Of a stretch of DNA of 64,000 nt, positions 4,446 through 63,611 are shown in pieces; position 1 is the first letter of the stretch, and each line of letters starts with the position of its first letter. The notes below the pieces were generated by a model. That model did no database searches and was not told the DNA's origin. It saw nothing but the letters and a program-made list of their open reading frames with translations. The stretch lies in NCBI GenBank assembly GCA_035530295.1, contig DATKVB010000009.1, positions 13,587 through 77,586 of the forward strand, in the 5' to 3' direction. The DNA comes from a bacterium (lineage in GTDB: Bacteria > Spirochaetota > Spirochaetia > Treponematales > UBA12059). A program made the translations under genes and the position numbers.

Positions 4446-4449
4446 GCCG

Positions 4450-49366: not shown

Positions 49367-49653
49367 AGGACGGCTTTGACGCCGGGCAGCTGCCCTATGG
49401 CCTGGTATGTCGCGTACAGGCTCTCTTTGTCCTGAAATACGACCTTGCAGGCCAGCCTGCCATACTTCTCGCCGGTGGCTGGAAGTGATCTGACTGACTC
49501 CAGCGCCACGCCGCGCTCCGTCAACAGGGCGTCCAGATCGACCTGCAGGGTCGCTCCGGCGTCGCGCGCATAGATGACGCGCAGTTCGAACTCCACCGGG
49601 TATTCTATGCCTTCGACACCGGAAGGTTCTATGGAAACGGTCTCATCAGCCAT
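49363..49653 (-). CDS. DUF493 (YbeD-like) family protein
   Basis: 96-aa ORF with the YbeD-like pattern YPVEFELRVI ... GEKYGRLACKVVF ... VKAVL. 4-nt overlaps link it to both neighbouring genes. Confidence 0.55.
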   Translation of the reverse strand: MADETVSIEPSGVEGIEYPVEFELRVIYARDAGATLQVDLDALLTERGVALESVRSLPATGEKYGRLACKVVFQDKESLYATYQAIGQLPGVKAVL

Positions 49654-51190
49654 TGTTGCCTCGCTCCGTCCGCTGCCGGGATTGCTGTCGATCGCGCAGC
49701 GGCGAACGCCTGGAAGCGGTTTCTTGATATGAAAGGATGTCCTGCTCCACAGAGCTTCTATACGACAGCAGCTCGAGCAGGATGGGTTTGTCTTCGGCCG
49801 CGGTGTCCAGGTTTGACAGCAACGATTCGACTGTCTTGGAGAAACCGGCTAGATCGGTGGCGCCTTCTATACGCGGACACAAGAGACGGCTGGCGCAGAA
49901 CGATCGCCAGCGGGCCAGTTCCGGCGCGGACAGGGTCTGCGGCCAGTTTCTGGCAAAGAGCCGCCTCACGAGCTGGGGCAGTCGCTCGTCCAGGAACGGC
50001 ATGGCATAGGCGTGGGGTCGCGCCTCCGCCGGGCCCAGTGTCGCTATCGATTCATGGACTGCCGCCATCGCGTCCTTGTCCTCGTCGCGGAAAAACCCGC
50101 CGGAGTATATCCGATATTCGGGGTCGGGCTCCACCGCGTCCGGCGGAGGCGGAGCAAAGACCGCCTGCAGTTTCTGTATCAGCTCGGGTTCGCGTTCCAG
50201 GCTCCGCGCCCGCTGCGTGGCAAGTTCCGGATCGAGGCCGAGCCTGTCGGCGGCCTTGGCGTCCATGGTCGAAAGCGGCGCCAGGAATGGACAGCGTCCA
50301 AGCCTGATGTCGATGAGCGGTATGCGTTCGCCGTCGTCAAGCTCGGCCTTGCGGGAGAACACGCGGCGGCGAATCTCGTCGACCGGCAGGTCGAGGAGGG
50401 GCGAGGGGTCATAGCGGAGGTCTATCGCGACGAGGCCATCGCGCCTGCCCGGTACCATGCCCACCGGCGCCACAATGGTCGTGCAGCCGCGAGCGCTGGT
50501 GTACTGGGCCGCGGTATGCACGAGTGGCTCCCGGTTGGCGAGGTTGACGAGTGGCCTGAGCGAGTCGCGCGTCCTGTGTTTCCAGTACCAGTCATAGAGC
50601 CGAGGCTGCACCTGTCGAACCAGCCTGGCCAGGCCTACGGTCGCCGCTATGTCATGGAAGGCGTCGTGCGCCGATTCAAGCGCAATGTCATTGGCCGCAG
50701 CCAGGCTGCCCAGCCTGAAGTCGGGCTTGCCATCCTGCCCGTCAGGCCACGACAGGTCGTCGGGACGCAGGTCCCTCATGGCGCGAAACAGATCGATTAC
50801 GTCCCAGCGGGTATTGCCATCGGCCCATTCGCGTTCGTACGGATCGAACAGGTTGCGGTACAGCATATTGCGTATGAACTCGTCGTCAAAGCGGATGGAG
50901 TTGTATCCGGCCACGCAGGTGCCCGGAGCCAGCATCTCGTTTCTGATGGCTTTCGCAAACTCGTATTCGGGCAGACCCTTCTCAATCGTCTCGGCGGGCG
51001 TTATGCCGTGAACGAGGCATGAATAGGGGCTGGGTAGGTAGTCAGCGGTTATCTTGCTGTACAGTACGACACGATCGGCTACAGGTTCCAGGTTCTCGTC
51101 GGTTCTGAGACCGGCAAACTGGGCTATTCTGTCGTGCCGTGGATCGAGGCCAAATGTTTCAAGATCGTACCAGAGTATGCTCGAGCCCAT
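49646..51190 (-). CDS. sbcB: exodeoxyribonuclease I
   Basis: Start MGSSILWYDLETFGLDPRHDRIAQFAGLRTD at 51190 and colinear with E. coli SbcB (YNSIRFDDEFIRN, AHDAFHD). Confidence 0.85.
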   Translation of the reverse strand: MGSSILWYDLETFGLDPRHDRIAQFAGLRTDENLEPVADRVVLYSKITADYLPSPYSCLVHGITPAETIEKGLPEYEFAKAIRNEMLAPGTCVAGYNSIRFDDEFIRNMLYRNLFDPYEREWADGNTRWDVIDLFRAMRDLRPDDLSWPDGQDGKPDFRLGSLAAANDIALESAHDAFHDIAATVGLARLVRQVQPRLYDWYWKHRTRDSLRPLVNLANREPLVHTAAQYTSARGCTTIVAPVGMVPGRRDGLVAIDLRYDPSPLLDLPVDEIRRRVFSRKAELDDGERIPLIDIRLGRCPFLAPLSTMDAKAADRLGLDPELATQRARSLEREPELIQKLQAVFAPPPPDAVEPDPEYRIYSGGFFRDEDKDAMAAVHESIATLGPAEARPHAYAMPFLDERLPQLVRRLFARNWPQTLSAPELARWRSFCASRLLCPRIEGATDLAGFSKTVESLLSNLDTAAEDKPILLELLSYRSSVEQDILSYQETASRRSPLRDRQQSRQRTERGNNG

Positions 51191-51234
51191 TGTGTCAGTA
51201 TACTCCGCGTGTGGCCCGAGCGTGAAGTGATGCC

Positions 51235-51277
51235 TTGACACTAGCCTGTCGTATCGATAATCGTTATCGTTACGATT
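51235..51277 (+). promoter_or_regulatory. promoter-like elements plus Fur-box-like operator upstream of the fur-family gene
   Basis: TTGACA (51235-51240) and GATAAT (51256-51261) are separated by a 15-nt spacer. They are overlapped by GATAATCGTTATCGTTACGATT, which contains the inverted repeat AATCGT-N7-ACGATT (51259-51277). Confidence 0.35.
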
Positions 51278-51300
51278 GCCCGCTGGCTGCGGTGGAGGTT

Positions 51301-51738
51301 GTGGTGAACGACGATGAACGCGCGGCTCTTGAGCGATACCTGAAGGCGCGCGGACTCAAGATGACACACGCCAGGAGAACCGTTCTTGAGGCCTTTCTGG
51401 GACTCGAGTCACATGTCAGCGCCGAGGCGGTGTTCGAGGCGGCCAGGCTCATCGATCCTGGCATCGGTCAGGCCACCGTATTCCGCACCATCAAGCTGCT
51501 GTCAGACGCGGGCTTGGCCAGGGAAGCCAGCCGTGACGACGCGGCACGGCTGTACGAGCATGCCTTCAACCACGCCCACCACGACCACCTGACATGCGTG
51601 CGCTGTGGAGCTGTCGTGGAGTTTATCGACGCGGACATAGAGCGCGCGCAGGATGGTGTCTACAGGCGCTTCGGCTTCGTGTCGAGCGGGCATCGGCTTG
51701 AGCTGTACGGCCTGTGTCCCGACTGCCAGAAATCATGA
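51301..51738 (+). CDS. Fur-family metalloregulator
   Basis: Contains HARRTVLEAF, ATVFRTIKLL, HHDHLTCVRCG and the C-terminal CPDC. GTG start at 51301 or 51304 after GGTGGAGG; the exact start is uncertain. Confidence 0.75.
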   Translation: MVNDDERAALERYLKARGLKMTHARRTVLEAFLGLESHVSAEAVFEAARLIDPGIGQATVFRTIKLLSDAGLAREASRDDAARLYEHAFNHAHHDHLTCVRCGAVVEFIDADIERAQDGVYRRFGFVSSGHRLELYGLCPDCQKS

Positions 51739-51751
51739 GTGGCTCAAGCGA

Positions 51752-52501
51752 CTAGCGATCCCCCGCGTCCACATGAAATCGTCCCCGCCCTTGCCTTCTC
51801 GCCTCGATGATGGCCGCTCGGGCTCGCTTCAGGATTTCTGGCCCTTCGCTGGGTTTGCCGACGGCCGCGCCGACCGCTCCACCTATCCATATCGTCTGCG
51901 AGTCTAGCTCGACCGGCCTGCACAGCGTCTCGACGAGCTGGCCGGAGCGCTCCTCCGCCGTCTCAAGCGCCCTGGCGGGCACAACCGTCGCTATGGCGGC
52001 AAAATCATCATCGCCGGTACGCGCGGCTATGCCGTCGGAGCCGGCGAATGTCGAGACACGCTTGGCAACCTCGACCAGCACCGTATCCGACACCGATTTG
52101 CCGTATCGTCGCTCTATCTCGTCGAAGTTGTCGAGGTCGGCGCTCATAACAATGATGCTCTTGCCTTCCTGCGCAATCAGGCCAGCTTTCTCGGCCAGCC
52201 ACGCGGCCAGGCCGTTTGCATTGGCAAGTCCGGTCAGCTCGTCGATCCTGTCAGATGGTATGGGTTCATCACTCGACCTGGCTGCCGACAAGACGGGCGC
52301 GGCCGCCACCGACAGGCTCAGCCGCCCTATCCGCATGAGCAGAGCCGCAAGCCCTCCCGCGACAACGATTCCGCCCAAGGCACCCGGAGCTCCGCCAATT
52401 GCCGCGCCGACCGCTCCAATCAGGGCCGATGCGGATGCGACCAGGGCCGCCATCATGATGGCCCCGGAGTAACCCGAAATGCTTGATCTTTGTGTGCTCA
52501 T
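51752..52501 (-). CDS. membrane-anchored GGDEF-domain protein with degenerate active site
   Basis: N-terminal TM helices and the block DELTGLANANGL. The signature reads RTGDDDF where RxGG(D/E)EF is expected. Confidence 0.7.
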   Translation of the reverse strand: MSTQRSSISGYSGAIMMAALVASASALIGAVGAAIGGAPGALGGIVVAGGLAALLMRIGRLSLSVAAAPVLSAARSSDEPIPSDRIDELTGLANANGLAAWLAEKAGLIAQEGKSIIVMSADLDNFDEIERRYGKSVSDTVLVEVAKRVSTFAGSDGIAARTGDDDFAAIATVVPARALETAEERSGQLVETLCRPVELDSQTIWIGGAVGAAVGKPSEGPEILKRARAAIIEARRQGRGRFHVDAGDR

Positions 52502-52604: not shown

Positions 52605-53594
52605 ATGGCAAGCATGGAGCAAACATACAGAGCGCTCATACCCGATGCCATTCCTGTCGATAAGGGAAATGAGAAAGTGGGTATGGCTTCAAAAACAGGT
52701 TTCGCAGTTTCAGATTCGGATAGACGTCTCATCCGTGACAACGCGCACTACATCCGTGAGGCGCTGTTCTCGTGTATTACCGATACGCAGGTGGAATGCT
52801 CCGTCGCCTTTGCCCGGTACCTGGCGCGAGCTGGGTTGAACGCCGAGAACTACTGGCTGTTCCTGCGGCTCGTCATGACAAACAATCCGTGGGTGCTTGA
52901 CGAGCTGATGCACGAGCGAGAACCGCGCCTGCTGTTCTCGACCATTCTGCCCACAGAGGAACTCGTCGAGACCGCCTTCCAGGCTCTGTTCTCAAGGCAT
53001 CCAGACGAAATATACCCCAAGGCTCTCGAGGCTCTGCTTGGCATAGTCGAGAACGCCTACTTCGACCCTGATGATGGATACCGCCTCCGCAAGCTGTCGA
53101 TCATGGACATCAACGCACTGGGCAAGTTCCTCCGCAAGGACGAGCCCCAGGAACATCCCGTCAACCGCCTTATCCTTGAGATTCTTGACAAGCTGACCGG
53201 TCTTGGGGAGTACTTCCAGGAGCCTGACAAGAGCGTGTTGTCCAAGCATGCCTTCAATGTCCGGTTTGCCTATTTCGACAGGGCCAGGAACATGGTCGAC
53301 GCGATACCGCATCCGTTGCTGGTTCGGTTCGCCGACCGCAGTTCGGCCGACCCCGAATCGGACTATGCCGACCTGATAACCAAGCGGCGCGCGCGCAGGC
53401 GTGACGAACGCGGTCGCTTCATACGTGAATCGCAGCCGGATGCCGAGCCGACCATAGTTGCGCCAACAGCAGTTGAGCCAACCTTGGCCAAGGCACCAGT
53501 GATTGAGCGAGCGATAGTCGAGACCGCAGCAGTTGGGCCGCCGCCAGTTGAGCCGCAAGCGGCTCCCAAGCGAAAGAGAAAGAAGACGAGCTGA
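52605..53594 (+). CDS. unknown-family protein, paralog 1 of 4 (with Pro/Val/Glu-rich, basic C-terminal tail)
   Basis: Shares NYWLFLRL, IYPKAL, DGYRL, DINALGKFL, NRLILEILDKL and IPHPLLV with the ORFs at 55639, 56359 and 57142. An alternative start at 52683 would give paralog-like N-terminal spacing. Confidence 0.7.
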   Translation: MASMEQTYRALIPDAIPVDKGNEKVGMASKTGFAVSDSDRRLIRDNAHYIREALFSCITDTQVECSVAFARYLARAGLNAENYWLFLRLVMTNNPWVLDELMHEREPRLLFSTILPTEELVETAFQALFSRHPDEIYPKALEALLGIVENAYFDPDDGYRLRKLSIMDINALGKFLRKDEPQEHPVNRLILEILDKLTGLGEYFQEPDKSVLSKHAFNVRFAYFDRARNMVDAIPHPLLVRFADRSSADPESDYADLITKRRARRRDERGRFIRESQPDAEPTIVAPTAVEPTLAKAPVIERAIVETAAVGPPPVEPQAAPKRKRKKTS

Positions 53595-53649
53595 TTCCGG
53601 CCACAAAACATGAATGTCCGCATCGTGTCGAGCCGCAAGGAGGGTCCTC

Positions 53650-54621
53650 ATGGCGAGGAAGACTGACACCAGTATCATTCGGGCCCGGGAAAAGCCTGTG
53701 GACCCAGCGTCCATACCGCCCCACTCCGATGTCCTGCTGGTAGAGCGGGCGATAGACATAATAAAGGACGACGCCTGCAGGCCCCACGATTCGCGCGGGC
53801 AGCCGGGTGGACTCCTGTACCTGCCGGATGGGCTGCGGCCCATCATCGTGGGCGATCTGCATGCGTGCGTTGACCATCTCGGCAATATTCTTGATCACGA
53901 CAACAACAGGCGCGATATGGACGAGGGCCGCGCCTACCTGCTCTTCGTTGGCGACATTCTGCATGACGACCGTGTCGGCTACATGCGCGAGACTGCCAAC
54001 TCCATCCAGATACTCAACCAGGTGCTTACGCTGGTAGCCACCTGGCCAGGCAGGGTATTCTATATCCGTGGCAACCATGATACCTTCGACGAGCGCCTGA
54101 GGAAATCGGGCGTTGCCCAGGGAGCCGAATTCAAGAAGGCCCTTATCCAGATTACTGGCCAGGCCTTTACTGACGCGGTTGCCCGCTGGTTCGAGGCGCT
54201 GCCATATTTTGCCATCGGCGATAGCTTCGTCATCGTTCATGCGGGCCCTATACGGGGTGGCTGCACGCGGGAGGAAATCATAGACATCTGGAGGCGTCCC
54301 GACTACGCGATGCAATTCATGTGGAACCGCGTCAACGAGTTCCATGGCAACCCCAGCCCCAAGGAATATGGCGAGACCGATATCAGGATGACACTCGAGT
54401 CGCTTGGATTGCCGCCCTTGACCCACTTTATCGTCGGTCACAACCCACTCTGGAACGATGGTGGAACGACTGGCTTGTGGGAAAACGTGATTGGCATAAA
54501 GAATCACCACATCATCTATTCCGGTTCCGGGAGCAAGGCCCCCTACTATACGCTGGAAGGCGGGTTGCTCAAGGCCAAATTTTCCAAACCAGAGCGAGCG
54601 GAGGTGTATTACTATGGATGA
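53650..54621 (+). CDS. PPP-type metallophosphoesterase (Ser/Thr phosphatase-like)
   Basis: ATG at 53650 after AAGGAGGG. Ordered motifs are GDLHAC, GDILHD, GNHD, VHAG and GHNP. Confidence 0.8.
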   Translation: MARKTDTSIIRAREKPVDPASIPPHSDVLLVERAIDIIKDDACRPHDSRGQPGGLLYLPDGLRPIIVGDLHACVDHLGNILDHDNNRRDMDEGRAYLLFVGDILHDDRVGYMRETANSIQILNQVLTLVATWPGRVFYIRGNHDTFDERLRKSGVAQGAEFKKALIQITGQAFTDAVARWFEALPYFAIGDSFVIVHAGPIRGGCTREEIIDIWRRPDYAMQFMWNRVNEFHGNPSPKEYGETDIRMTLESLGLPPLTHFIVGHNPLWNDGGTTGLWENVIGIKNHHIIYSGSGSKAPYYTLEGGLLKAKFSKPERAEVYYYG

Positions 54622-55528
54622 ACGACAACGCATGCTCGCCGAGCTCGATGATCCGGAGCTGGCTTCATATTTCTACCTTGACAAGACCATGCCCGAGGTG
54701 TTGCGTTATCTCGATTCCCTGCAGCTGACGCTTGATCCGCTCGCAGACGACATGCCTTTCAACGCGGCCGTCAAGGGGTATGGTGGGGCCAAGGATATGC
54801 AGGGGCACCCATGGATTGTCAAACCTATAACCAACAAGCAGGACATTCTATACCACAGGCTATGCACGCTGGCGTACCTCCTGGACCATGCTACTGGCAC
54901 GCTCGCGGCGCCCACGGGCATCGCGAGCATCGACGGATCGGTGTACCGCATAACCAAGGTCGTGCGCAAATCAATACAGATCAGCTCGTACCCATACCTT
55001 GACCAGCCATACATCGGCATCATCAGGGCCGACCTGGTCAACCGCTGGCTGTACTTTGATGAAGACCGCAATCCCAACAACTATCTGGTTGTCCACAACC
55101 GCAAACAGCGCCCCTTTGTTGTCGCCATCGACTACGACAAGGCCGATCTGGCGTCTCCCGTAATGAAGATAACAGGCGACCAGCAGAAATTTGGGTGGTT
55201 CCGCAGTGAGAAGACCCGATTCCTGACCCTGCTCCGACCTACGCACTTCGATGGCATATCGATAGACGTGTTTGATGCCAGGCTCAAGGCCATATGCGGC
55301 ATCACCGAGGCCGAGTTGCGGAGTATCGTCCATCAGCTACTGGACGCCTATTCGGACGCGGCCTATGCCGATGCTATCGTGGCCAACCTGCTGGCCAGAC
55401 GTGCCTACATCGATGAGTATTTCAGGCGCATGTTCAAGTCAGCAGCCGAAACAACCGATTCCAGGCATGATGATGACTACGCCGCCTTCGGTGATAGCTT
55501 CAGAAACATGTATAAAGACAAGAATTGA
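54614..55528 (+). CDS. atypical kinase-like protein (PI3/4-kinase type II / HipA-like catalytic loop)
   Basis: 8-nt overlap with the phosphatase gene. Contains WIVKP (candidate Lys), FDEDRNPNNYLVV (DRxxxN-like catalytic loop) and VVAIDYDKAD (DFG-equivalent). The functional call is tentative. Confidence 0.5.
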   Translation: MDERQRMLAELDDPELASYFYLDKTMPEVLRYLDSLQLTLDPLADDMPFNAAVKGYGGAKDMQGHPWIVKPITNKQDILYHRLCTLAYLLDHATGTLAAPTGIASIDGSVYRITKVVRKSIQISSYPYLDQPYIGIIRADLVNRWLYFDEDRNPNNYLVVHNRKQRPFVVAIDYDKADLASPVMKITGDQQKFGWFRSEKTRFLTLLRPTHFDGISIDVFDARLKAICGITEAELRSIVHQLLDAYSDAAYADAIVANLLARRAYIDEYFRRMFKSAAETTDSRHDDDYAAFGDSFRNMYKDKN

Positions 55529-55558: not shown

Positions 55559-55587
55559 TTGACAATTGGGATTTCGGGGATTAGAAT
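55559..55587 (+). promoter_or_regulatory. sigma-70-like promoter inside the paralog locus
   Basis: TTGACA, a 17-nt spacer, then TAGAAT. The -10 element is embedded in the hairpin GGGGAT-taga-ATCCCC. It lies 52 nt upstream of the ATG at 55639. Confidence 0.5.
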
Positions 55588-55638: not shown

Positions 55639-56337
55639 ATGGACAAACAGACTGAGAAGGTGATCGAGCGGACCTGGTCAAAAGAGACCATAATGCAGGT
55701 AGAACTCGGAATCCTCCAGAACATGCTCGGGTGTCGCACGGAAGAGGCTGTAGAGGCGGCGATCAGTTTTGCCCGTTTCCTCAGTATCTCTGGCTTGAGC
55801 AATGACAACTACCCGCTATTTCTCAAACTGCTCGAGGTTGAGAATCACTGGGTAATCGATACGATGGTAGCCGACAAGGATCCGTTCCTTCTCATCAGCC
55901 CCATCCAGTCGAACAGCTACTTGCTGTACACGGCATTCAAGTTGCTGACGAAGTGGCATCCGGGCGGAATCTACCCGGTAACGCTCTCTATCGTGCTTGG
56001 CATCCTGCAGGCCGCGTATGCGTCGCCAAAAGATGGCTACAAGATCTTCTCGGTATCGATCAATGACGTCAACAACCTTGGCAAGCACCTGAACAAGGAA
56101 AACGGGCAGGACGATCCAAACAATCGCTGCATCCTGGACATTCTCGACAGGCTGGGCTCTCTGGCTGGTACCTCTACCAACCCGGAGAAGGAGCAGATGT
56201 CACGGCAGGCCAACAGTATCCGTACCTTCTTCTTTGACAAGCGCAAGAAGATGGAAGATGTGATTCCGCAGGTTCTTCTCGTAAAGTCGGATTACATCGC
56301 CAAGGAAACCGCCCCCCGCCAGATTTTTGCTGACTAA
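55639..56337 (+). CDS. unknown-family protein, paralog 2 of 4
   Basis: 232 aa, RBS GGAGG. Shares NYPLFLKL, IYPVTL, DGYKI, DVNNLGKHL, NRCILDILDRL and IPQVLLV with the other paralogs. Confidence 0.75.
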   Translation: MDKQTEKVIERTWSKETIMQVELGILQNMLGCRTEEAVEAAISFARFLSISGLSNDNYPLFLKLLEVENHWVIDTMVADKDPFLLISPIQSNSYLLYTAFKLLTKWHPGGIYPVTLSIVLGILQAAYASPKDGYKIFSVSINDVNNLGKHLNKENGQDDPNNRCILDILDRLGSLAGTSTNPEKEQMSRQANSIRTFFFDKRKKMEDVIPQVLLVKSDYIAKETAPRQIFAD

Positions 56338-56358
56338 GGCCCATAAAGGAGCGTGGAT

Positions 56359-57069
56359 ATGAAAGAACTTTTCGAGAAGAAACAGGATTGGACCGACGAA
56401 GAAGTCGCGAATATAGAGTACAGCATGCTCAAGGGCATCATGGGCACACGCACGGAAGAAGCTGTCGAAGCCGCCATGACCTACGCGAGCTACCTCAACT
56501 TTACCGGAATAACCAACGGTAATTACCCGGTGTTCCTGAAGGCACTGATAACCAGGAACCACCATGTGATAGATGCTCTCCTGGGGACCAGGGATCCGTT
56601 CCTCTTCATGAGCTCCATCCAGCCCAATTACTTCATAGTCGCCTCGTGCTTCAGCATTCTGGCCAAGTACCGCAAGGGCGAGATCTATCCCAAGACACTC
56701 GGCATCATCCTTGGCGTCTTCCAGGCTACCTACAACTCGCCGCTTGATGGATACAAGATCTATCCGGCCACCGTCGCCGACGTGAACTGCCTTGGCAAGC
56801 ACCTCAATGAGGACAAGGGCCAGGATGATCTGCTCAACCGCTCCATCCTCGACATCCTTGACAAGATCTCTTCTCTCGAGGGGCAGAATGTGGACGAGGA
56901 CATGGAAGATCTGGCTGTGCATGCCCACAACATCCGCAACAATTTCTTCGACTCCACCAAACGGCTCGTTGACATCATCCCCGAAGTGTTGCTCCGCATA
57001 GAGCCGAACATGGACAAGGATGTTCAGCCGCGCAAGCGCGTTCCTCTCGAGGCTCCGGCCGCTAACTAA
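56359..57069 (+). CDS. unknown-family protein, paralog 3 of 4
   Basis: ATG at 56359 after AAAGGAG; the track start at 56353 is a GTG. Shares NYPVFLK, IYPKTL, DGYKI, DVNCLGKHL, NRSILDILDKI and IPEVLL. Confidence 0.75.
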   Translation: MKELFEKKQDWTDEEVANIEYSMLKGIMGTRTEEAVEAAMTYASYLNFTGITNGNYPVFLKALITRNHHVIDALLGTRDPFLFMSSIQPNYFIVASCFSILAKYRKGEIYPKTLGIILGVFQATYNSPLDGYKIYPATVADVNCLGKHLNEDKGQDDLLNRSILDILDKISSLEGQNVDEDMEDLAVHAHNIRNNFFDSTKRLVDIIPEVLLRIEPNMDKDVQPRKRVPLEAPAAN

Positions 57070-57141
57070 ATGGCAAAATGGCGGTAGCCGCTGGTCTCGT
57101 CGGAGACCACGGCACCGTCGGCCAGCAAGAGGAGGGATCGA

Positions 57142-57843
57142 ATGCTCGGAGAGGCGTGGCCCATGTGGTCCGAGGACGAGATAGACGCGCTGAAGCTCGG
57201 CTATCTGAATGATATTATCGAGTGCAATGACGGCTACGGCACCTTTGCCGCGTTGGCCTACGCACAGTACATGATCAGCAAGGTTGGCATTACCTCTGAT
57301 AATTACCCCATATACTTCCGTCTGATAGAGTCGGGAAACCGCTGGGTAGTCGATACCCTCGTCGGTGACCGCGATCCTTCAAAGTTCTTTGGCAGCATCC
57401 AGCCGAATACCTTCATGCTCAAGGAATGCTTCAGCATGCTGACCGCCTGGAAACCAGGTGAGGTGTATCCGAAGAGTCTGCAGATTCTGTACGGACTCCT
57501 GGTTCTGTGCTACGAGACGCCAGAGGAAGGCTATCGTCTGTACCCGCTTACCATTCCGGACGTAAACAATCTGGGCAAGCATCTGGACAAATCCAAGGAT
57601 CAGATGGATCCGCTCAATCGTATCGTATTGACGCTGCTCGACAGGCTGGCTGGGCTCATCGAGCCGCAGAAGCCGCTGCCGGCTCGGGAGATTCAGGATG
57701 TCGCGTTGCAGGCGAACAATATCCGGGGCAAGTTCCTTGATATGACCAAGCGCATGAATGAGGCTATCCCTGATATTATCCTGGTACGCGGCGATTACAC
57801 TGCCGCCGAGGTCAAACCAGCAATCCCTGAAATCAAGGTCTGA
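57142..57843 (+). CDS. unknown-family protein, paralog 4 of 4
   Basis: RBS GAGGAGGG. Shares NYPIYFRL, VYPKSL, EGYRL, DVNNLGKHL, NRIVLTLLDRL and IPDIILV. Confidence 0.75.
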   Translation: MLGEAWPMWSEDEIDALKLGYLNDIIECNDGYGTFAALAYAQYMISKVGITSDNYPIYFRLIESGNRWVVDTLVGDRDPSKFFGSIQPNTFMLKECFSMLTAWKPGEVYPKSLQILYGLLVLCYETPEEGYRLYPLTIPDVNNLGKHLDKSKDQMDPLNRIVLTLLDRLAGLIEPQKPLPAREIQDVALQANNIRGKFLDMTKRMNEAIPDIILVRGDYTAAEVKPAIPEIKV

Positions 57844-57943
57844 TGACTGATCCGGTGCGGTCCATACGGGCCGCACCGACGTGATCCGCACAACGATCGC
57901 GGCCATGCACTTGAAAAATCTGCCGACAACGGAGCGTTGAGGC

Positions 57944-59800
57944 TTGTCATCGGGCACAGTACTGCGCGAACGCGCCATCATCAATGATTGCTACATACTC
58001 CGTGAGCGCGTTGGCCATGATGCCTACTGCGAAATATGGCGTGCCAGCGCACTCTTCTCTGCCACGAACTTCCTGGTTCGATTCATCGACGCCAACATCC
58101 CCGTTGAATATTGCGAGGCCGAGCGGCGACTGATCATGGATGCCTATGACGTCCGCCACGCGGCGATTCTCGATGTAGTCGAGGTCGACCGCTTCGGGAC
58201 GCTGATGTTTATATCATCGGAATACAGCGCACTGGTAACGCTCGAGCAGGCCTTGTCGGGCGGCATAACCTTCTCACTCGATCACATCTGCGGCTTTGCG
58301 CTTGAGCTTTCCCAGGCGCTGGACATGTTCAACCGCCGTGGGCTTGTCTATGGCACCGTGAACATGCAGGCTATATTTGTATCATTGGAGCAGGGCATCG
58401 TGACCGAACTCAAGCTCCTGAAGCCGGGGTATCTCCCGCTGGTCGGTTCGGCGAGCAAGCTTGATCCTGATGCGATGCGCTGCAACTATGGCTTCATGGC
58501 GCCTGAATGCAAGGGCGGCGCATTGACAAGAGCCGATCAGCGGGCTGATGTATATTCTCTGGGCATCCTGCTCTACAGGCTTATAACAGGATCGATGCCA
58601 TTCCGCGGAACTCACGCCGGGCGTGCGCTGGACGCTCCTGTTTCGGTCCGGCACATATCCAATGCTTTGATACGCCGGGGCGTACCGCCGGCGCTGGCAA
58701 GGATCATCGTCACCTGTGTACGGACAAACCCGGCGTCGCGGTATCCAAACATGGTAGGGCTGATCCGGGAGCTGCGCATGTTCCTGGATGACAGGCGACT
58801 TGCTACGATAAAGCGAGGAGCCGCGGACCCACTCGCCGACCTGGAGAATTTGAACTCAACCAAATCGGCTGGTGGCGCGGAACAGGTGCTGCGCAAGCTT
58901 GATATGGCAGAATACTTTGGCGCGCTGTCCGAGGGCATAAGTATGGAGCCGGATTCCGACTCGGGGCAGCGATTTCCAACCGGAGTATCGCTCGGCGAGA
59001 CCAGGTCGGGTATGGCGGGCGAAGCCGAAGAAATCTCAGAGATGGGCGACACCGATATCGAGAGCATGAGCGCCCAGGACCATGTCGACGCAAGCCTGAG
59101 CCTTCTCGGGATATCGGTGTCCGCCCGCGCTACCGGAGCGACTGGCCGGCCGGTGGCCACCGGGAACGCCGCGCTCCTGTCCGCCACCCTGGATGCATCC
59201 GCTGCGGAGACAGGGCCAGGGCCAGTACCCGGGGCGGCCTCCGAAGGCATGGTATCGATGTCCTCTGCAACCGGCCACCGTGTACTGTGGAGCCATGTGC
59301 GCATTGACTCGGAGGAGCTTGCCGCTTCGCTCATTGAAGCGTGCGAATCAGCGCGGCACAAGCGTGGCGCGTTCCGCTATATACAGGAGCCAGCTGGAGA
59401 GCACGGCATGCGGTTGCTTTCTGACCTTGTGGAACGTATGCGGCAGTCGTACTTTGTGCTGGACATGTCGACGGGCAGCCATGGCCTCGATGAGTTTGTT
59501 CCGGCAATGCAAGCGGCTATTGCCATATCGCTGCGCGATGTCTCGCCGGGCATCAGGCGCAGGCTCAAGACTCGTTTCCCCGCGGTACTGCAGTCGATCG
59601 GAACATCGGCTGATCCTGGAGCCGCGGCGCTTGCGTGTGCCAGGATGGCAACGCGATCAAGACCATTGGTCCTGATGCTCCGCGTCGTCGCCCCGACGGA
59701 TGATGCCCTTGGAACATTCTTCGAGGCACTGGCCGCGATAGCCCACCATGAGCGGCTCTGCGTCTTTGCGTTTTTCTCCGGTGAGCCTCCGGTAGCCTGA
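57944..59800 (+). CDS. Hanks-type pseudokinase with long C-terminal region (possible degenerate P-loop NTPase module)
   Basis: The kinase fold is retained (YGFMAPE, DVYSLGILLYRLITGSMPF, NPASRYP). The VAIK Lys is replaced in LVRF, HRD-x4-N reads VYGTVNMQ and DFG reads KPG. TTG start; no in-frame ATG lies nearby. Confidence 0.65.
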   Translation: MSSGTVLRERAIINDCYILRERVGHDAYCEIWRASALFSATNFLVRFIDANIPVEYCEAERRLIMDAYDVRHAAILDVVEVDRFGTLMFISSEYSALVTLEQALSGGITFSLDHICGFALELSQALDMFNRRGLVYGTVNMQAIFVSLEQGIVTELKLLKPGYLPLVGSASKLDPDAMRCNYGFMAPECKGGALTRADQRADVYSLGILLYRLITGSMPFRGTHAGRALDAPVSVRHISNALIRRGVPPALARIIVTCVRTNPASRYPNMVGLIRELRMFLDDRRLATIKRGAADPLADLENLNSTKSAGGAEQVLRKLDMAEYFGALSEGISMEPDSDSGQRFPTGVSLGETRSGMAGEAEEISEMGDTDIESMSAQDHVDASLSLLGISVSARATGATGRPVATGNAALLSATLDASAAETGPGPVPGAASEGMVSMSSATGHRVLWSHVRIDSEELAASLIEACESARHKRGAFRYIQEPAGEHGMRLLSDLVERMRQSYFVLDMSTGSHGLDEFVPAMQAAIAISLRDVSPGIRRRLKTRFPAVLQSIGTSADPGAAALACARMATRSRPLVLMLRVVAPTDDALGTFFEALAAIAHHERLCVFAFFSGEPPVA

Positions 59801-59925: not shown

Positions 59926-60972
59926 TTATCGCTTGTTGAGGTACTTCCTGATATCGATAGCTACCGCCGCAATGATGATCGCGCCTTTTACTATCTGTTG
60001 CCAGTACGGCGACATGTTGATGAAGGTTAATCCATAATTGATGACGCTGAAGATCAGGACGCCGACAAGCATGCCGGGCACGGTGCCGATGCCGCCCGAG
60101 GTGGAGACTCCGCCCACGACGCAGGCCGCGATCGCGTCGAGCTCGTATCCGTTGCCATAATTGTTGGTAGCACCGCCGGTCCTGGCGGCTTCAAGCGCTC
60201 CGGCCAAGCCGTAGAGCAAACCCGCTATCGTGTAGGCGATAAGAAGATTCCTGGTCACGTTGACGCCTGAAACCTTGGCGGCCTCGGGATTGCCGCCGAT
60301 CGCGTATATGTTCTTGCCAAAGGTTGTCTTGTTGTGCAGTACCCAGATTATGAATGCCACGCCAAGCGCGATGATCACAATGAATGGCACGGAGAGCCTG
60401 CCATCAAATCCCAGGTATCCAGAGCCAAGCGATGTAAAGCGCTTATCCAGACCGCCTATCGGCTGGGCTCCATAGGGGGGCCTGTCGAAATACAACGATG
60501 TAGCTCCATAGACGGCGACCATGGTGCCCAAGGTGGCAATGAATGGCGGGACCTTGAGCTTCGAGACTATCAGTCCATTGGCAAGGCCAATGATGCCGCA
60601 CACGACCATGGCGGCCAGGATTGGCACGATCAGTGGCAGCTGGCCAAGGTTTGGATACATCCTGCGGGGATAGTCGATGGCCTGCAGCAACGAGCCTGAT
60701 ATGACCGCGGCCAGTCCCACCATGCGGCCCGCAGAAAGATCGGTGCCGCCCGTTATCAGGATGCCGCCTACGCCCATGGCTATGATGATGCGCGTAGCGG
60801 ACATGGACAGGATGTTTCTGAAATTCTCTATCGACAGGAATGAAGGTTCCTTGATTGTTATGCCTATTATCAGGATGACAAAGACGAAATAGATCGCGTA
60901 CCGCAACGCGAAATCAGACACGGCACGTTGGCCTGGACGCTCTCCGAGCGCTGTTTTATCTTGCTTGGACAT
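59926..60972 (-). CDS. mglC: galactose/methyl-galactoside ABC transporter permease
   Basis: 348-aa multi-TM ORF of the MglC/RbsC permease family, positioned downstream of mglB-mglA. Confidence 0.8.
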   Translation of the reverse strand: MSKQDKTALGERPGQRAVSDFALRYAIYFVFVILIIGITIKEPSFLSIENFRNILSMSATRIIIAMGVGGILITGGTDLSAGRMVGLAAVISGSLLQAIDYPRRMYPNLGQLPLIVPILAAMVVCGIIGLANGLIVSKLKVPPFIATLGTMVAVYGATSLYFDRPPYGAQPIGGLDKRFTSLGSGYLGFDGRLSVPFIVIIALGVAFIIWVLHNKTTFGKNIYAIGGNPEAAKVSGVNVTRNLLIAYTIAGLLYGLAGALEAARTGGATNNYGNGYELDAIAACVVGGVSTSGGIGTVPGMLVGVLIFSVINYGLTFINMSPYWQQIVKGAIIIAAVAIDIRKYLNKR

Positions 60973-60983
60973 CGATGTCTCCC

Positions 60984-62501
60984 TTACTCAAAGAGCGCCG
61001 CGAGGCGCATGATTTCTTCCTGCGTTGTGGTCTTGCCGTCAAGGATGCCCGTTTTTCTGCCATCGCACATGACCATGATCCTGTCCGACATGCCGATCAG
61101 TTCGGGCATCTCCGAGGATATCATGATGATGCTTTTGCCGCTCGCGGCAAGGTCGGCGATGATTGTGTATATTTCATACTTTGCGCCAACATCAATACCA
61201 CGCGTTGGCTCATCGAGTATCAGGATCTCCGGTTCGGTAAGCAGCCATTTGGCAAAGAGCACCTTCTGCTGATTGCCTCCGGAGAGATCCTTTATCAACG
61301 TCCTGTAGCTGGGTGTCTTGATGCGCAACTCGTCAATTTTTCTTCTGGTATCTGCCACGCCAAGCTTCTCGTTGATCAGCCCGGTCTTGCCTACGTAGCG
61401 GGCGATGTTGGCCAGAAGCATGTTCTCCTTGACGCCAAGCATTGGAATGATGCCAGTCGCCCGGCGTTCCTCGGTGAGCAACGAGAAGCCTTCACCCATC
61501 GCGTGTACGGGTGATCGCATCTTGATGGTCTTGCCACGAAGCTCGATGTGTCCCTTCTCGATAGCCCTGAGACCGAAGATTGATTCCACCAATTCGGTGC
61601 GTTTGGCGCCGACCAGACCACCGATGCCGAGAATTTCTCCCTTGCGCAAATCAAACGATATGTCCCGGAACGAATGGCGCTCGGCCGAGGTCAGGCCTTC
61701 GACTCTCATAACCACGTCTCCCGGAACATTCGACCGCGGTGGGAAGCGGTGCGTCAGATCGCGTCCGACCATCCGCTTGATTATCACATCCGTGGTCAGC
61801 TCGCTGGACGGCCAGGTACCGACGTGCTTGCCATCGCGCATTATGGACACCTCGTCCGCTATCTCGAGTATCTCTTCCATCTTATGGGAAATATAGACTA
61901 TCGCGGCCCCTTCGGAACGGAGCCGGCGTATGATGCCAAACAGGTGGGCGACCTCATGCTCGGTCAGCGAGCTCGTCGGTTCGTCCATGATGATGACCTT
62001 GGCGCTGTAGGAGACCGCCTTGGCAATTTCTATCGATTGTATCTTGGACACGGAAAGGTTCTTGACCCAGATCGCGGGGTCAATGTCCATAGCCAGGTTC
62101 TTGAACAAGGTCTTGGTATCGGATCGCATCTTCCTGTGGTCCACCAGCTTGAAAGGACCAAAGCCTCTCAGCGGATATCTGCCGAGCCACAAATTCTCTT
62201 CAACGCTTCTGTTCGGGACCGACAAAAGCTCCTGATGTATCATGGAAACGCCACTGTCCAGAGCCTGTCGGGAATTCTGGAATCGTACCGGTGTGCCATC
62301 GAGCACTATCTCGCCCTGGTCGGGAGCGTAAATGCCAAAAATGCACTTCATCAAGGTCGACTTGCCGGCGCCATTCTCGCCCATCAGGGCGTGAACCGAG
62401 CCTGGGCGAACCTTGATTGAGACATCGTCCAGTGCCTTAACGCCCGGGAAGCTTTTTGATATGTTTTTTAATTCCAGGACATATTCAGCGCTCATGTGCA
62501 C
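60984..62501 (-). CDS. mglA: galactose/methyl-galactoside ABC transporter ATP-binding protein
   Basis: 505-aa duplicated ATPase with GENGAGKST, IIMDEPTS, LSGGNQQK and LILDEPTRGID. Confidence 0.85.
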   Translation of the reverse strand: MHMSAEYVLELKNISKSFPGVKALDDVSIKVRPGSVHALMGENGAGKSTLMKCIFGIYAPDQGEIVLDGTPVRFQNSRQALDSGVSMIHQELLSVPNRSVEENLWLGRYPLRGFGPFKLVDHRKMRSDTKTLFKNLAMDIDPAIWVKNLSVSKIQSIEIAKAVSYSAKVIIMDEPTSSLTEHEVAHLFGIIRRLRSEGAAIVYISHKMEEILEIADEVSIMRDGKHVGTWPSSELTTDVIIKRMVGRDLTHRFPPRSNVPGDVVMRVEGLTSAERHSFRDISFDLRKGEILGIGGLVGAKRTELVESIFGLRAIEKGHIELRGKTIKMRSPVHAMGEGFSLLTEERRATGIIPMLGVKENMLLANIARYVGKTGLINEKLGVADTRRKIDELRIKTPSYRTLIKDLSGGNQQKVLFAKWLLTEPEILILDEPTRGIDVGAKYEIYTIIADLAASGKSIIMISSEMPELIGMSDRIMVMCDGRKTGILDGKTTTQEEIMRLAALFE

Positions 62502-62537
62502 TCCAGGTAGATTGAGTCAGAAGCCTGCCCGGTAGCC

Positions 62538-62585
62538 CTGAACCCGGAGGACAGGAGCCTGGTGGCCCGCGTCCTCCGGGTTCAG
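62538..62585 (-). promoter_or_regulatory. intercistronic stem-loop between mglB and mglA
   Basis: Perfect 15-bp inverted repeat CTGAACCCGGAGGAC ... GTCCTCCGGGTTCAG with an 18-nt loop. Confidence 0.55.
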
Positions 62586-62600
62586 ATCCTTCTGTAAGGC

Positions 62601-63611
62601 TTATTTGAACTGCGTATAGTTGTCCTTGGTAACCTTCTGGTACGGAACCCAGACATACTTGCCATCGGAGATGGTCCAGCCGACGGTCGCGGGATCCTTG
62701 CCTGTGGCAAGGGCGAACGCTATGTCGAAGGTAGCTTTTCCCTGGTTCTTGGCATCGTTGAGGACGGTGCCGAGCAGGGTGCCCTGCTCAAGAGCCTGCA
62801 GCGCCGGAGCGGTGGCATCAACGCCTACGACCGGCAGGTACTTGTCGCCGGCGAAGAAGCCTTCCTGGCGGAGGGCTTCGATGGCTCCAAGGGCCATGTC
62901 ATCATTGTTGCAGAGCACTACTTCGATGCGGTTGCCAAACTTGGCCCAGAAGGCCTTCATCTTCTCGACGGCCTTGGGGCGATCCCAATAGGCGGTGTCT
63001 TCGGCGAGCTTCTCGACCTTCATGCCGGCGGCGGTGATGGCCTTGATTGAATACTCGGTGCGCAGCTCCGCGTCCTGGTGTCCTGGCTCACCCTTGAGCA
63101 TGATGTACTGTATGATTCCGTCGCCGTTCTTGTCGGCCTTGGGATTGGCTTTGAAATAGTCGACGACGATCTCGCCCTGCATGGTACCCGACTGCTCGGC
63201 CTTGGCGCCGACATAGTAGACTTTGTCCCACTTGGCCATGTCCTCAGGAAGGGGCTCGCGGTTGAAGAAGACCACAGGGGTCGAGCGGGCCTTGGCCTTG
63301 TCAATGATGGCGGCGGCTGCGGTGCGGTCAACGGGGTTGATCGCTATGACCTTGGCCTTCTTGGACAGGAACGCGTCGACTTGATCGTTCTGGGTCGGCT
63401 GGGCGTTCTGGGAATCGACCATCTCGACCGTGGCCTTGCCTGTCGCGTTGGCCTCGATTGCGTTTCTTACGTATGACATGAACGTGTCATCGAACTTGTA
63501 GATCGCTACGCCGATTTTTGGCATGGCGCTTTCCGCAGTCTTGGTGCCGCAGGAGACAACGAGCGTCCCGAGCACGACCAGGGCGGCGAGGATCGCGAAT
63601 AACTTCTTCAC
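62601..63611 (-). CDS. mglB: galactose/glucose-binding periplasmic lipoprotein
   Basis: GTG start after GAGGAGG and the lipobox VVSCG. Contains IGVAIYKFDDTFMSYVRNAIE, colinear with E. coli MglB. Confidence 0.85.
   Translation of the reverse strand: MKKLFAILAALVVLGTLVVSCGTKTAESAMPKIGVAIYKFDDTFMSYVRNAIEANATGKATVEMVDSQNAQPTQNDQVDAFLSKKAKVIAINPVDRTAAAAIIDKAKARSTPVVFFNREPLPEDMAKWDKVYYVGAKAEQSGTMQGEIVVDYFKANPKADKNGDGIIQYIMLKGEPGHQDAELRTEYSIKAITAAGMKVEKLAEDTAYWDRPKAVEKMKAFWAKFGNRIEVVLCNNDDMALGAIEALRQEGFFAGDKYLPVVGVDATAPALQALEQGTLLGTVLNDAKNQGKATFDIAFALATGKDPATVGWTISDGKYVWVPYQKVTKDNYTQFK

Follow-up and report, generated by a model that had tools for sequence, protein, structure and literature searches.

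Several described systems combine, in part, the kinds of proteins encoded at the locus analyzed here. In the PP2A-type holoenzymes, a PPP catalytic subunit associates with the HEAT-repeat scaffold A/PR65 and with regulatory B subunits, whereas in LKB1-STRAD-MO25 an active kinase and a pseudokinase are combined with a helical-repeat adaptor. The HipBA and HipBST toxin-antitoxin systems and CtkA of H. pylori share an atypical kinase fold. In the FrzS-SgmX polarity module of Myxococcus, the polar scaffold FrzS, a pseudo-receiver/coiled-coil protein lacking the phospho-acceptor Asp (PMC1974792), recruits a helical-repeat protein (PMC9811614). Finally, alpha/beta-tubulin and BtubA/BtubB are polymers built from pairs of paralogs. 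When examining a 64,000-nucleotide stretch of spirochaete DNA (hereafter, the window; contig DATKVB010000009.1), we found a cluster that encodes four related, predicted all-helical proteins of an undescribed family along with a PPP-like phosphatase, a protein with a HipA/CtkA/PI4KII-like predicted fold and an apparently inactivated Hanks-type kinase, and that resembles each of these systems only in part.

The four paralogs, here denoted par1 (52605-53594), par2 (55639-56337), par3 (56353-57069) and par4 (57142-57843), are all encoded on the + strand and align over about 200 residues with 41 invariant columns, including the blocks NY, [RK][DE]P, YP..L, GY, D[VI]N.LGK.L, NR..L..LD and IP..L. Pairwise BLASTP comparisons gave 34-46% identity, 130-223 bits and E values of 1e-40 to 1e-77 (1e-40 to 1e-53 for par1 against par2-par4), far beyond chance. 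The observation of a tandem family with shared, ordered sequence blocks made in the original prediction is therefore confirmed, although with several corrections. The apparent triplication is ancient rather than recent, and each copy has its own ortholog lineage. The N- and C-terminal segments that were described as divergent differ between the paralogs but are conserved within each ortholog group, so that they are paralog-specific and not hypervariable. The par1 tail, predicted to span roughly 90 residues with VEP-like repeats, consists of 87 residues that do end in KRKRKKTS, but the supposed repeats are low-complexity P/A/V/E sequence, and Tandem Repeats Finder detected no DNA repeat there. 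The most likely start of par3 is the ATG at 56359, which is preceded, 8 nt upstream, by an AAGGAG ribosome-binding site and is compatible with the 236-aa length of a 99.6%-identical ortholog (236-238 aa overall), and par1 probably starts at 52683, given that the NCBI model of the same protein (P0086 in our numbering) is 303 aa long and the orthologs begin there. Both par2 (232 aa) and par4 (233 aa) are preceded by a GGAGG ribosome-binding site.

Searches of Pfam, NCBIfam, PADLOC, PHROGs and PDB sequences, with single proteins and with profiles, yielded no match for the paralogs; the best hit of the profile search against PDB sequences had an E value of 2.1, and scattered weak hits (DUF1824, Sua5 and a Bcl-x homolog), all with E values of 0.03 or more, were treated as chance. 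The AlphaFold2 model of par2 (pLDDT 80.9) is entirely alpha-helical, with 12 short helices and not long hairpins, and has no significant Foldseek match. As in the PP2A-type holoenzymes, a PPP-like Ser/Thr phosphatase is encoded here with several all-helical, solenoid-looking proteins. The weak structural neighbors among the 436 matches to the PDB are HEAT/ARM proteins, including the PP2A A subunit (ranks 23, 26 and 31; E about 1, TM about 0.27). However, comparison of segments of the family alignment with one another using hhalign found no internal repeats (probability of 0.5% or less), and no HEAT or Arm Pfam hit was obtained in 47 members of the family even at E values up to 1. Neither 14-3-3 nor cyclins nor MO25 are among the 50 best structural matches, and no catalytic fold and no known bacterial cytoskeletal fold (FtsZ/tubulin, MreB/actin, bactofilin, intermediate-filament-like coiled coils or ESCRT-III/PspA) appears among the Foldseek matches. 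The best match in BFVD had an E value of 0.46. Of the 10 positions that are conserved across the whole family, only K149 and D200 are polar, which argues against an enzyme. A literature search for the locus tags of Sediminispirochaeta and for related concepts found no description of this family.

The order par1, phosphatase, kinase, par2, par3, par4, pseudokinase, or the same genes with the par2-par4 block inverted, was found in about 45 loci of Spirochaetia, including that of the cultured, sequenced Sediminispirochaeta (CP002116.1, about 894.7-915.4 kb), which has the full cluster, and each paralog forms its own ortholog cluster. The cluster is kept almost unchanged across free-living spirochaetes; host-associated Treponema, Borrelia, Leptospira and Brachyspira were not seen among the loci returned, although this sampling does not establish absence. 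The identity of the paralogs falls with taxonomic distance, as expected for vertical inheritance. Two of the paralogs are extremely constrained: over the 45 loci, median identity is 86.6% for par2, the most conserved member, and 84.0% for par3, compared to 69.1% for par4, 54.4% and 53.6% for the neighboring enzymes and 36.7% for the pseudokinase. In 55 orthologs of par3, 107 of the 240 columns are invariant and 146 are conserved at 90% or more. The dN/dS ratio (omega) is of the order of 0.01-0.05 (0.012-0.053 for par2 and 0.012-0.084 for par3), and for the unsaturated pair of loci L002/L003, it is 0.047 for par2 and 0.012 for par3, against 0.09-0.21 for the neighbors. These estimates were obtained from pairs of orthologs because comparison of the paralogs within the window, as originally suggested, is not meaningful at 34-46% protein identity, where synonymous sites are saturated. 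The dS of par2-par4 is also 2-4 times lower than that of the neighbors in most genome pairs.

A near-consensus sigma-70-type promoter for par2-par3-par4 (TTGACA-17-TAGAAT, 11 of 12 consensus matches) is predicted at 55559-55587 (+), and the pattern TTGAC[AT]-N16-18-TAnnnT lies 34-127 nt (mostly 45-85 nt) upstream of par2 in 29 of 63 loci. In four loci (L017, L018, L021 and L024), the promoter-par2-par3-par4 block is present twice at about 100% identity, and in L017 and L024, the promoter was specifically found to be included in the 100%-identical duplicated block. Codon bias, used here only as weak support for high expression, is clear only for par3 (Nc 39.2, the second most biased of the 30 genes of the window) whereas par2 and par4 have ordinary Nc values of 48 and 46.

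The remaining paralog, par1, consists of the family domain followed by the tail, which contains a conserved motif (PE.D[FY]A[DE]LV..RR.RKRD..GRF[VI][KR]E), then a P/A-rich linker and then the polybasic end; in 38 orthologs, the tail has a median length of 67.5 aa and a net charge of +6.2. Judging by gene spacing, par1 appears to be co-transcribed with the phosphatase and the kinase. The phosphatase (53614-54621, +) is a divergent, PPP-like Ser/Thr protein phosphatase of the metallophosphoesterase kind (Pfam Metallophos, E 2.7e-10), and the profile of its orthologs hits BSU1 (E 1.2e-6), PP5 and calcineurin in the PDB at E values of 1e-6 to 1e-3. The motifs GDLH, GD..H, GNHD, HAGP and GHN are invariant although the second motif lacks the classical DRG. 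The 304-aa putative kinase (54614-55528, +) overlaps the phosphatase stop by 8 nt, which implies translational coupling. Its AlphaFold2 model (pLDDT 88.3, pTM 0.86) matches CtkA (E 3.6e-5, TM 0.45-0.53), PI4KIIalpha, HipA and HipT with a Foldseek probability of 1.00 (E 3.6e-5 to 2e-3 for CtkA, HipA and HipT), and the motifs W..K, FDEDRNPNNY and ID[YF]..D are invariant, and the catalytic loop is intact; the DRNPNN motif followed by ID[YF] resembles the HipA motif D-x-H-x-K-N. This protein is vertically inherited, has no Pfam, NCBIfam or PDB sequence hit, shows only 9-14% identity and TM of 0.4-0.5 to these kinases, and forms its own family of about 250 database clusters, none with a Pfam domain. 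Given that the fold is shared with the PI4KII lipid kinases, its substrate may not be a protein. By contrast, in the Hanks-type pseudokinase (57944-59800, +; kinase domain at residues about 10-290, Pfam Pkinase E 1e-11, followed by an unannotated C-terminal half of about 330 aa), alignment with Stk1 of S. aureus (4eqm) shows that the Gly-loop is lost, VAIK is replaced by LVRF, HRDIKPQN by YGTVNMQA, and DFG by KPG, and the same degenerate motifs (LLRF, YG[TC], KPGY) occur in 40 orthologs.

Outside the spirochaetes, par2/par3-like pairs were detected in Desulfobacterales, Myxococcales and Acidobacteria, with no such enzymes nearby. In four non-spirochaete loci, the pair lies next to a large protein (642-854 aa) with a receiver domain (Pfam Response_reg), in which the phospho-acceptor position is occupied by G or S, followed by a very long, E/K/Q/A-rich, coiled-coil-like region; a homolog is also present in locus L055. 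The similarity to FrzS/AglZ is one of architecture only because generic receiver domains score better than FrzS, and SgmX, the partner of FrzS, is a TPR protein unrelated to the present family; in the spirochaete clusters, a pseudokinase is present instead. These non-spirochaete relatives and a subfamily of 187-208 aa occur without any kinase or phosphatase, so that phospho-control is not intrinsic to the family.

The interpretation offered in the original prediction is only partly supported. The family is real, has a conserved core, is predicted to be helical, lacks a catalytic signature and any known domain, and lies beside a phosphatase, a kinase and a pseudokinase as predicted, and a binding or adaptor role remains the most plausible class of function. 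The notion of a diversified, immunity-type family, however, is not supported: four fixed ortholog lineages under very strong purifying selection, without hits to defense or phage libraries, are the opposite of a rapidly diversifying family. Our preferred, albeit tentative, explanation is that the four paralogs are subunits of one cytoplasmic, hetero-oligomeric, all-helical assembly, in which par2 and par3 would form the obligate, abundant core and par4 would be a third stoichiometric subunit. In this view, par1 would be a specialized subunit, made together with the enzymes, that couples the assembly to the kinase and the phosphatase and, through its polybasic tail, to a polyanionic surface such as acidic membrane or nucleic acid. 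The state of the assembly, or the partners it recruits, would be switched by reversible Ser/Thr phosphorylation, with the HipA/CtkA-like kinase writing the mark, the PPP-like phosphatase erasing it, and the catalytically dead Hanks kinase acting as a docking or allosteric scaffold. The homology, synteny, constraint, folds of the enzymes and expression signals emerge from the analysis itself, whereas physical association, including any stable binding of the helical proteins to the phosphatase, as well as stoichiometry, phosphorylation of the paralogs, self-assembly and the target surface, and hence the function as a whole, are inferences. The fixed set and order of genes, constraint typical of multi-interface structural subunits, signs of high and balanced dosage, the lack of enzyme features, the phospho-signaling context, the polybasic tail and the FrzS-like neighbors in other phyla are all in line with this model. 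So are the conserved termini, W[ST]..E at the N-terminus and [ED]V.P at the C-terminus, which AlphaFold2 fails to place (pLDDT 40-58) and which could be arms that dock on partners. Against it, there is no direct evidence of any protein-protein contact: the only apparent par2-par3 fusions (proteins P0001, 443 aa, and P0002, 431 aa) have frameshifted ends and were rejected as assembly or sequencing artifacts. Also against it are the codon bias that is clear only for par3, the occurrence of family members without any kinase or phosphatase, and the kinase fold shared with lipid kinases.

Alternative scenarios appear less likely. Conceivably, although doubtfully, the paralogs are interchangeable helical adaptors that confer substrate specificity on the phosphatase, the kinase or the pseudokinase, by analogy with the PP2A A/B subunits or with MO25 in STRAD-LKB1. 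The tight synteny, the apparent co-transcription of par1 with the enzymes and the weak HEAT/ARM neighbors are compatible with this possibility, but par2 and par3 are far more conserved than the enzymes they would regulate, their own strong promoter and extra gene copies imply an excess over the enzymes, and par2/par3 pairs exist in three other phyla without such enzymes nearby; furthermore, the active kinase in the LKB1 module has a Hanks fold, unlike the kinase described here. It is likewise possible, but unlikely, that par2/par3 heterodimers polymerize into a previously unknown cytoskeletal or shell-like structure of free-living spirochaetes, with par4 and par1 as capping or anchoring subunits and with assembly controlled by phosphorylation. 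The constraint on two adjacent paralogs that are always kept together is at the level seen for actin or tubulin, dosage signals and unplaceable conserved termini are present, par1 has a polybasic putative anchor, the non-spirochaete relatives lie beside long coiled-coil proteins, and cytoplasmic tubules of unknown composition have been described in some spirochaetes (PMC3746420, for Leptonema, an organism in which the family was not shown to occur). On the other side, we found no GTPase or other nucleotide-binding motif and no similarity to any known polymer-forming fold, and the same conservation pattern fits a non-polymeric hub complex. At its boldest, this reading, which is no more likely, would make par2 and par3, with par4, the building blocks of a phosphorylation-controlled polymer or lattice of an all-alpha fold unrelated to tubulin, actin, bactofilin, intermediate-filament-like or ESCRT-III proteins, with par1 anchoring it to membrane or nucleoid and the relatives in Desulfobacterota, Myxococcota and Acidobacteriota working with FrzS-like coiled-coil scaffolds.

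It is still less likely that the paralogs are enzymes or small-molecule-binding proteins acting, for example, in a pathway together with a lipid or metabolite kinase and a phosphoesterase. Within the four spirochaete lineages, many polar residues are invariant (N57, Y58, N69, D74, D143, K149, Q157, N162, R163, D170, R195 and D200), the kinase fold is shared with PI4KII, and metallophosphoesterases include non-protein phosphatases, with weak ApaH and Pnkp hits in NCBIfam; however, only K149 and D200 remain among the polar residues conserved family-wide, there is no catalytic-fold match, four co-retained paralogs in a fixed order are unusual for an enzyme, and the phosphatase profile best matches protein phosphatases. 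Least likely of all is a toxin-antitoxin or anti-phage island in which a HipA-like toxin kinase is countered by the phosphatase, with the paralogs as diversified immunity or sensor proteins. Apart from the HipA/HipT-like fold, this idea rests on sub-threshold hits of the pseudokinase to defense kinase models (PD-T4-6, MADS6 and PglW), which reflect generic kinase-domain similarity far below the curated cut-offs. The paralogs, the phosphatase and the kinase gave no PADLOC hits and no meaningful PHROG hits, no HipB/HipS-like or HTH partner was found in the cluster, no tRNA was found in the window, no mobile-element gene was noticed among the ORFs flanking the cluster, the cluster is single, syntenic and diverges with taxonomy, and the low omega values are the opposite of arms-race evolution.

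If the preferred model is correct, this cluster represents a core, class-wide aspect of spirochaete cell biology that has not been named, namely, an abundant multi-subunit helical assembly with its own dedicated kinase, phosphatase and pseudokinase. The findings add an undescribed protein family and an undescribed branch of HipA/CtkA/PI4KII-fold kinases to bacterial Ser/Thr signaling, as well as a rare bacterial example of a conserved pseudokinase embedded in a defined module. The link to FrzS-like polar scaffolds in other phyla suggests a general role in subcellular organization, and should the assembly prove to be a polymer, it would be a new cytoskeletal class.

A relaxed profile search of the C-terminal half of the pseudokinase, a 542-aa membrane protein and the receiver/coiled-coil proteins detected no hidden copies of the family domain. 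A subfamily of short members (187-208 aa) consists of singletons located beside unrelated genes (fucose isomerase/FucU and nitroreductase; sufC/sufD), a context that is uninformative. Divergently transcribed from par1 is a gene (51752-52501, - strand) for a membrane-anchored GGDEF-domain protein (Pfam GGDEF, E 5e-25) with a non-canonical motif, RTGDDDF. This is a loosely associated neighbor, with orthologs of 43-59% identity next to the cluster in about 13 loci, where the motif takes forms such as SGDEF, NGDEF, EGDEF and GTDEF.

The four open reading frames of the family, designated here par1 (52605-53594), par2 (55639-56337), par3 (56353-57069) and par4 (57142-57843), are present as described, and in a MAFFT alignment the other three show 33-39% identity to par1, with 41 invariant columns that include all the sequence blocks which the original prediction had claimed to be shared among the four proteins. 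Pairwise BLASTP comparisons yield 34-46% identity, 130-223 bits and E values from 1e-40 to 1e-77, so that the homology is beyond doubt and the original observation of a four-member family holds. Minor corrections are nevertheless in order. The par3 gene probably starts at the ATG at 56359, given that an AAGGAG ribosome-binding site is located 8 nt upstream of this codon and that a 99.6%-identical database protein is 236 aa long, whereas par1 probably starts at 52683, because the NCBI model of the identical protein is 303 aa long and the orthologs start at this position. The C-terminal tail of par1 consists of 87 aa and ends in KRKRKKTS; since it contains no tandem repeat at the DNA level, the 'VEP-like repeats' noted in this region are low-complexity sequence.

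All genes of the cluster are on the + strand, in the order par1, a metallophosphoesterase (53614-54621), a 304-aa protein (54614-55528), par2, par3, par4 and a 618-aa kinase-like protein (57944-59800). The metallophosphoesterase is recognized by the Pfam Metallophos model (E 2.7e-10), and a profile constructed from its orthologs best matches the PPP-family Ser/Thr protein phosphatases, namely, BSU1 (1.2e-6), followed by PP5 and calcineurin; the motifs GDLH, GD..H and GNHD are invariant. The start of the 304-aa protein overlaps the end of the phosphatase gene by 8 nt (54614-54621), and the overlap is 4 nt in many orthologous loci, which indicates translational coupling of the two opposing enzymes. 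The 304-aa protein shows no sequence-level match in Pfam, NCBIfam or the PDB and has only about 250 database relatives, none of which is annotated with a Pfam domain. However, its AlphaFold2 model (pLDDT 88.3, pTM 0.86) matches Helicobacter pylori CtkA, PI4KIIalpha, HipA and HipT (E 3.6e-5 to 2e-3, probability 1.00, TM 0.4-0.53), and the motifs W..K, FDEDRNPNNY and ID[YF]..D are invariant, so, judging by the predicted structure and sequence, this protein is a likely active atypical kinase. By contrast, the 618-aa protein is a Hanks-type pseudokinase: when aligned to Stk1 of Staphylococcus aureus, it has lost the Gly loop, VAIK is replaced by LVRF, HRDIKPQN by YGTVNMQA and DFG by KPG, and the same degenerate motifs recur in 40 orthologs. 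The C-terminal half of the pseudokinase (residues about 300-618) has no domain hit and is poorly conserved (22-53% identity overall). Thus, the original assignment of the neighbors as a phosphatase, a kinase and a pseudokinase is correct.

A profile search of 5.8 billion proteins identified 762 relatives, all of which are unnamed or annotated as 'hypothetical'; none has a Pfam domain and, where a source names the organism, it is a spirochaete. An exhaustive HMMER search of 1.84 billion cluster representatives found only 218 clusters, and the distant members similarly lack Pfam domains; the family is therefore small and tight, with no bridge to a larger known family. A scan of one genome per GTDB species yielded 72 loci (individual loci are denoted hereinafter by L and a number), nearly all of them from metagenome-assembled genomes of Spirochaetota (Treponematales, Rectinemataceae, Marispirochaeta, Alkalispirochaeta and Sediminispirochaeta), with a few from Desulfobacterales, Myxococcales and Acidobacteria. 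Mapping of the genes by tblastn showed that the gene order of the window is shared by about 30 loci and that, in the loci of the Spirochaetales type, the same genes occur with the par2-4 block inverted; altogether, 45 loci carry par1, the phosphatase, the kinase and par2-4. Clustering of 261 family sequences places each of the window paralogs in its own ortholog group, so the four copies predate the divergence of the Spirochaetia orders. The full set is also present in a cultured organism, where the protein is annotated 'MULTISPECIES hypothetical protein [Sediminispirochaeta]' and is encoded on CP002116.1 (4,653,970 bp). In some Spirochaetales genomes, a fifth, more divergent paralog (27-32% identity) is located upstream of the cluster (L047:5230-5790, L049:5475-5999, L058:1177-1725 and L066:1106-1630), and L064, L065, L070 and L071 contain further extra copies, with 33-41% identity. 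In addition, a shorter subfamily of 187-208 aa (database proteins P0200-P0241; L073:8001-8627), which lacks the N-terminal helices, occurs as single genes in unrelated contexts in other Spirochaetota.

Over the 45 loci, the median identity to the window proteins is 86.6% for par2, 84.0% for par3, 69.1% for par4 and 61.1% for par1, compared to 54.4% for the phosphatase, 53.6% for the kinase and 36.7% for the pseudokinase. Among 55 par3 orthologs, 107 of the 240 alignment columns are invariant and 146 are at least 90% conserved. Nei-Gojobori estimates for ortholog pairs gave, for the unsaturated pair L002/L003, omega values of 0.047 for par2, 0.012 for par3, 0.054 for par4, 0.092 for the phosphatase, 0.107 for the kinase, 0.133 for par1 and 0.21 for the pseudokinase. 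In most pairs, the dS of par2-4 is also 2-4 times lower than that of the neighbors; in particular, for L021/L024, it is 0.63, 0.82 and 0.61 against 1.6-2.3. Low dS is common in highly expressed genes, although constraint at the RNA level also could be the cause.

Other signs of high expression were detected as well. The par3 gene has an Nc of 39.2, the second strongest codon bias among 30 genes of the window, although par2 and par4 are ordinary in this respect. A near-consensus promoter, TTGACA-17-TAGAAT, is located at 55559-55587, and the same pattern was found 34-127 nt (mostly 45-85 nt) upstream of par2 in 29 of 63 loci. Furthermore, in several Treponemataceae genomes (L017, L018, L021 and L024), the block consisting of the promoter, par2, par3 and par4 (about 2.3 kb) is present twice at about 100% identity, the copies being 8.1-8.3 kb apart (positions 2770-5100 and 10923-13250 in L017) and flanking the pseudokinase, GGDEF, par1, phosphatase and kinase genes. 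Given that the identity between genomes is only 86-93%, the copies either are kept identical within each genome, through gene conversion, or were duplicated repeatedly. Collapse of the same repeat probably explains the 141-nt terminal overlap of the 8260-bp contig L016, in which positions 1-141 are identical to 8120-8260. Together, these features point to abundant proteins that are made in balanced amounts.

The AlphaFold2 model of par2, built from an alignment of 47 sequences (pLDDT 80.9, pTM 0.74; residues 40-210 mostly above 85), contains 12 short helices and no strands. Foldseek comparison, which was limited to the PDB and BFVD, detected no significant match in the PDB (best E 0.096, TM 0.25-0.36) or in BFVD; the top weak PDB hits are designed helical repeats, armadillo, MIF4G, TOG and the PP2A A subunit, whereas no internal repeats are detectable in the sequence. 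The N-terminal 32 and the C-terminal 16 residues are modeled with low confidence and yet carry conserved motifs, namely, W[ST]..E in par2-4 and [ED]V.P in all four paralogs, a pattern that fits arms docking on partners. Across the whole family, including the 187-208-aa subfamily, only A45, L48, P82, L103, G121, K149, L151, L169, D200 and P210 stay conserved, a pattern that is structural rather than catalytic. The par1 orthologs of the Treponematales type carry, in addition, a conserved motif (PE.D[FY]A[DE]LV..RR.RKRD..GRF[VI][KR]E) followed by a variable A/P/K-rich segment that ends in a polybasic cluster, with a mean net charge of +6.2, suggesting an anchor to a polyanionic surface.

In all four loci from outside the spirochaetes, two or three par2/par3-like genes are adjacent to a gene for a large protein (L052:9945-12281, + strand; L055:4857-5888, + strand; L062:10355-12919, - strand; L067:9852-11780, - strand), which consists of 642-854 aa in L052, L062 and L067 and is cut by the contig end in L055. 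This protein contains an N-terminal receiver domain in which the phospho-acceptor Asp is replaced by G or S, a conserved SPFS[SR][DE]F motif and several hundred residues of coiled-coil-like sequence, an architecture like that of FrzS and AglZ. FrzS lacks the acceptor Asp (PMC1974792) and acts as a polar beacon that recruits a helical-repeat protein (PMC9811614). No phosphatase or HipA-like kinase is found nearby in these loci. We therefore infer that the par2/par3 pair would be the autonomous core, repeatedly linked to 'dead' signaling domains that are fused or adjacent to scaffolds, that is, a pseudokinase in spirochaetes and a pseudo-receiver elsewhere.

Taken together, the evidence fits best, although only tentatively, an abundant hetero-oligomeric helical assembly in which par2 and par3 would be the core, par4 a third subunit, and par1 a linker or anchor made together with the enzymes; the state of this assembly would be set by the kinase and the phosphatase of the cluster, with the pseudokinase as a docking partner. 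The homology of the paralogs, the synteny of the cluster and the constraint on its sequences are established directly by the present analysis, whereas the interactions between the proteins, their abundance and their phosphorylation are inferred; the apparent fusion proteins turned out to be artefacts. The original interpretation is only partly supported: the neighboring genes were correctly identified, but the reading of the paralogs as diversified, immunity-type proteins is not supported. To our knowledge, the family has not been described previously, in that none of the curated libraries, solved structures and papers searched contains an account of it. The working principle, as inferred here, nevertheless resembles that of the known helical scaffolds of Ser/Thr signaling, and the prospect that the family represents something categorically new, namely, a new class of polymer, is unlikely although it remains possible.

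Among the alternatives, it seems rather unlikely that the paralogs are adaptors of a holoenzyme formed with the enzymes of the cluster, considering that the putative regulators are far more conserved and probably more abundant than the enzymes and occur without them. A true polymer is compatible with everything found here but, on present evidence, is conjectural and appears somewhat less likely still. An enzymatic or ligand-binding role is improbable and is disfavored by the structural rather than catalytic pattern of conservation across the whole family. A toxin-antitoxin or defense role is the least plausible of these scenarios, being disfavored by the lack of PADLOC hits and of meaningful PHROG hits for the paralogs as well as by the synteny and conservation of the cluster and the low omega values.

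In the window, a protein with two TM segments and a GGDEF domain, in which the motif is RTGDDDF instead of RxGGDEF, is encoded next to par1 (51752-52501, - strand); membrane GGDEF proteins with a non-canonical motif are often present in loci of the Treponematales type, and the orthologs of this protein, which lie beside the cluster in about 13 loci, have SGDEF, NGDEF, EGDEF, GTDEF or GSDEF. This protein may be an inactive or atypical cyclase functionally tied to the cluster. The Spirochaetales-type loci additionally carry, next to par1, a conserved membrane protein of 460-790 aa (L074:8263-9891, + strand, and homologs in L036-L049, L058, L059 and L066), with an N-terminal helical domain of about 230 aa, a low-complexity middle, one TM segment and a small C-terminal domain; it has no Pfam hit and is not detectably related to the paralog family. 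No tRNA is present in the window and no mobile-element gene was noticed among the ORFs around the cluster (48-64 kb). The flanking genes look like ordinary chromosomal housekeeping genes, which, judging from their translations, are an mglBAC-type sugar ABC transporter downstream (59926-63611, - strand) and exonuclease I (sbcB-like) and a Fur-family regulator upstream (49646-51738). Long antisense ORFs of 201-404 aa (52992-53885, 53419-54633, 56200-56928 and 57379-57984, all on the - strand) overlap the genes of the cluster; they lie opposite genes conserved on the + strand, and we treated them as by-products of GC-rich coding sequence.
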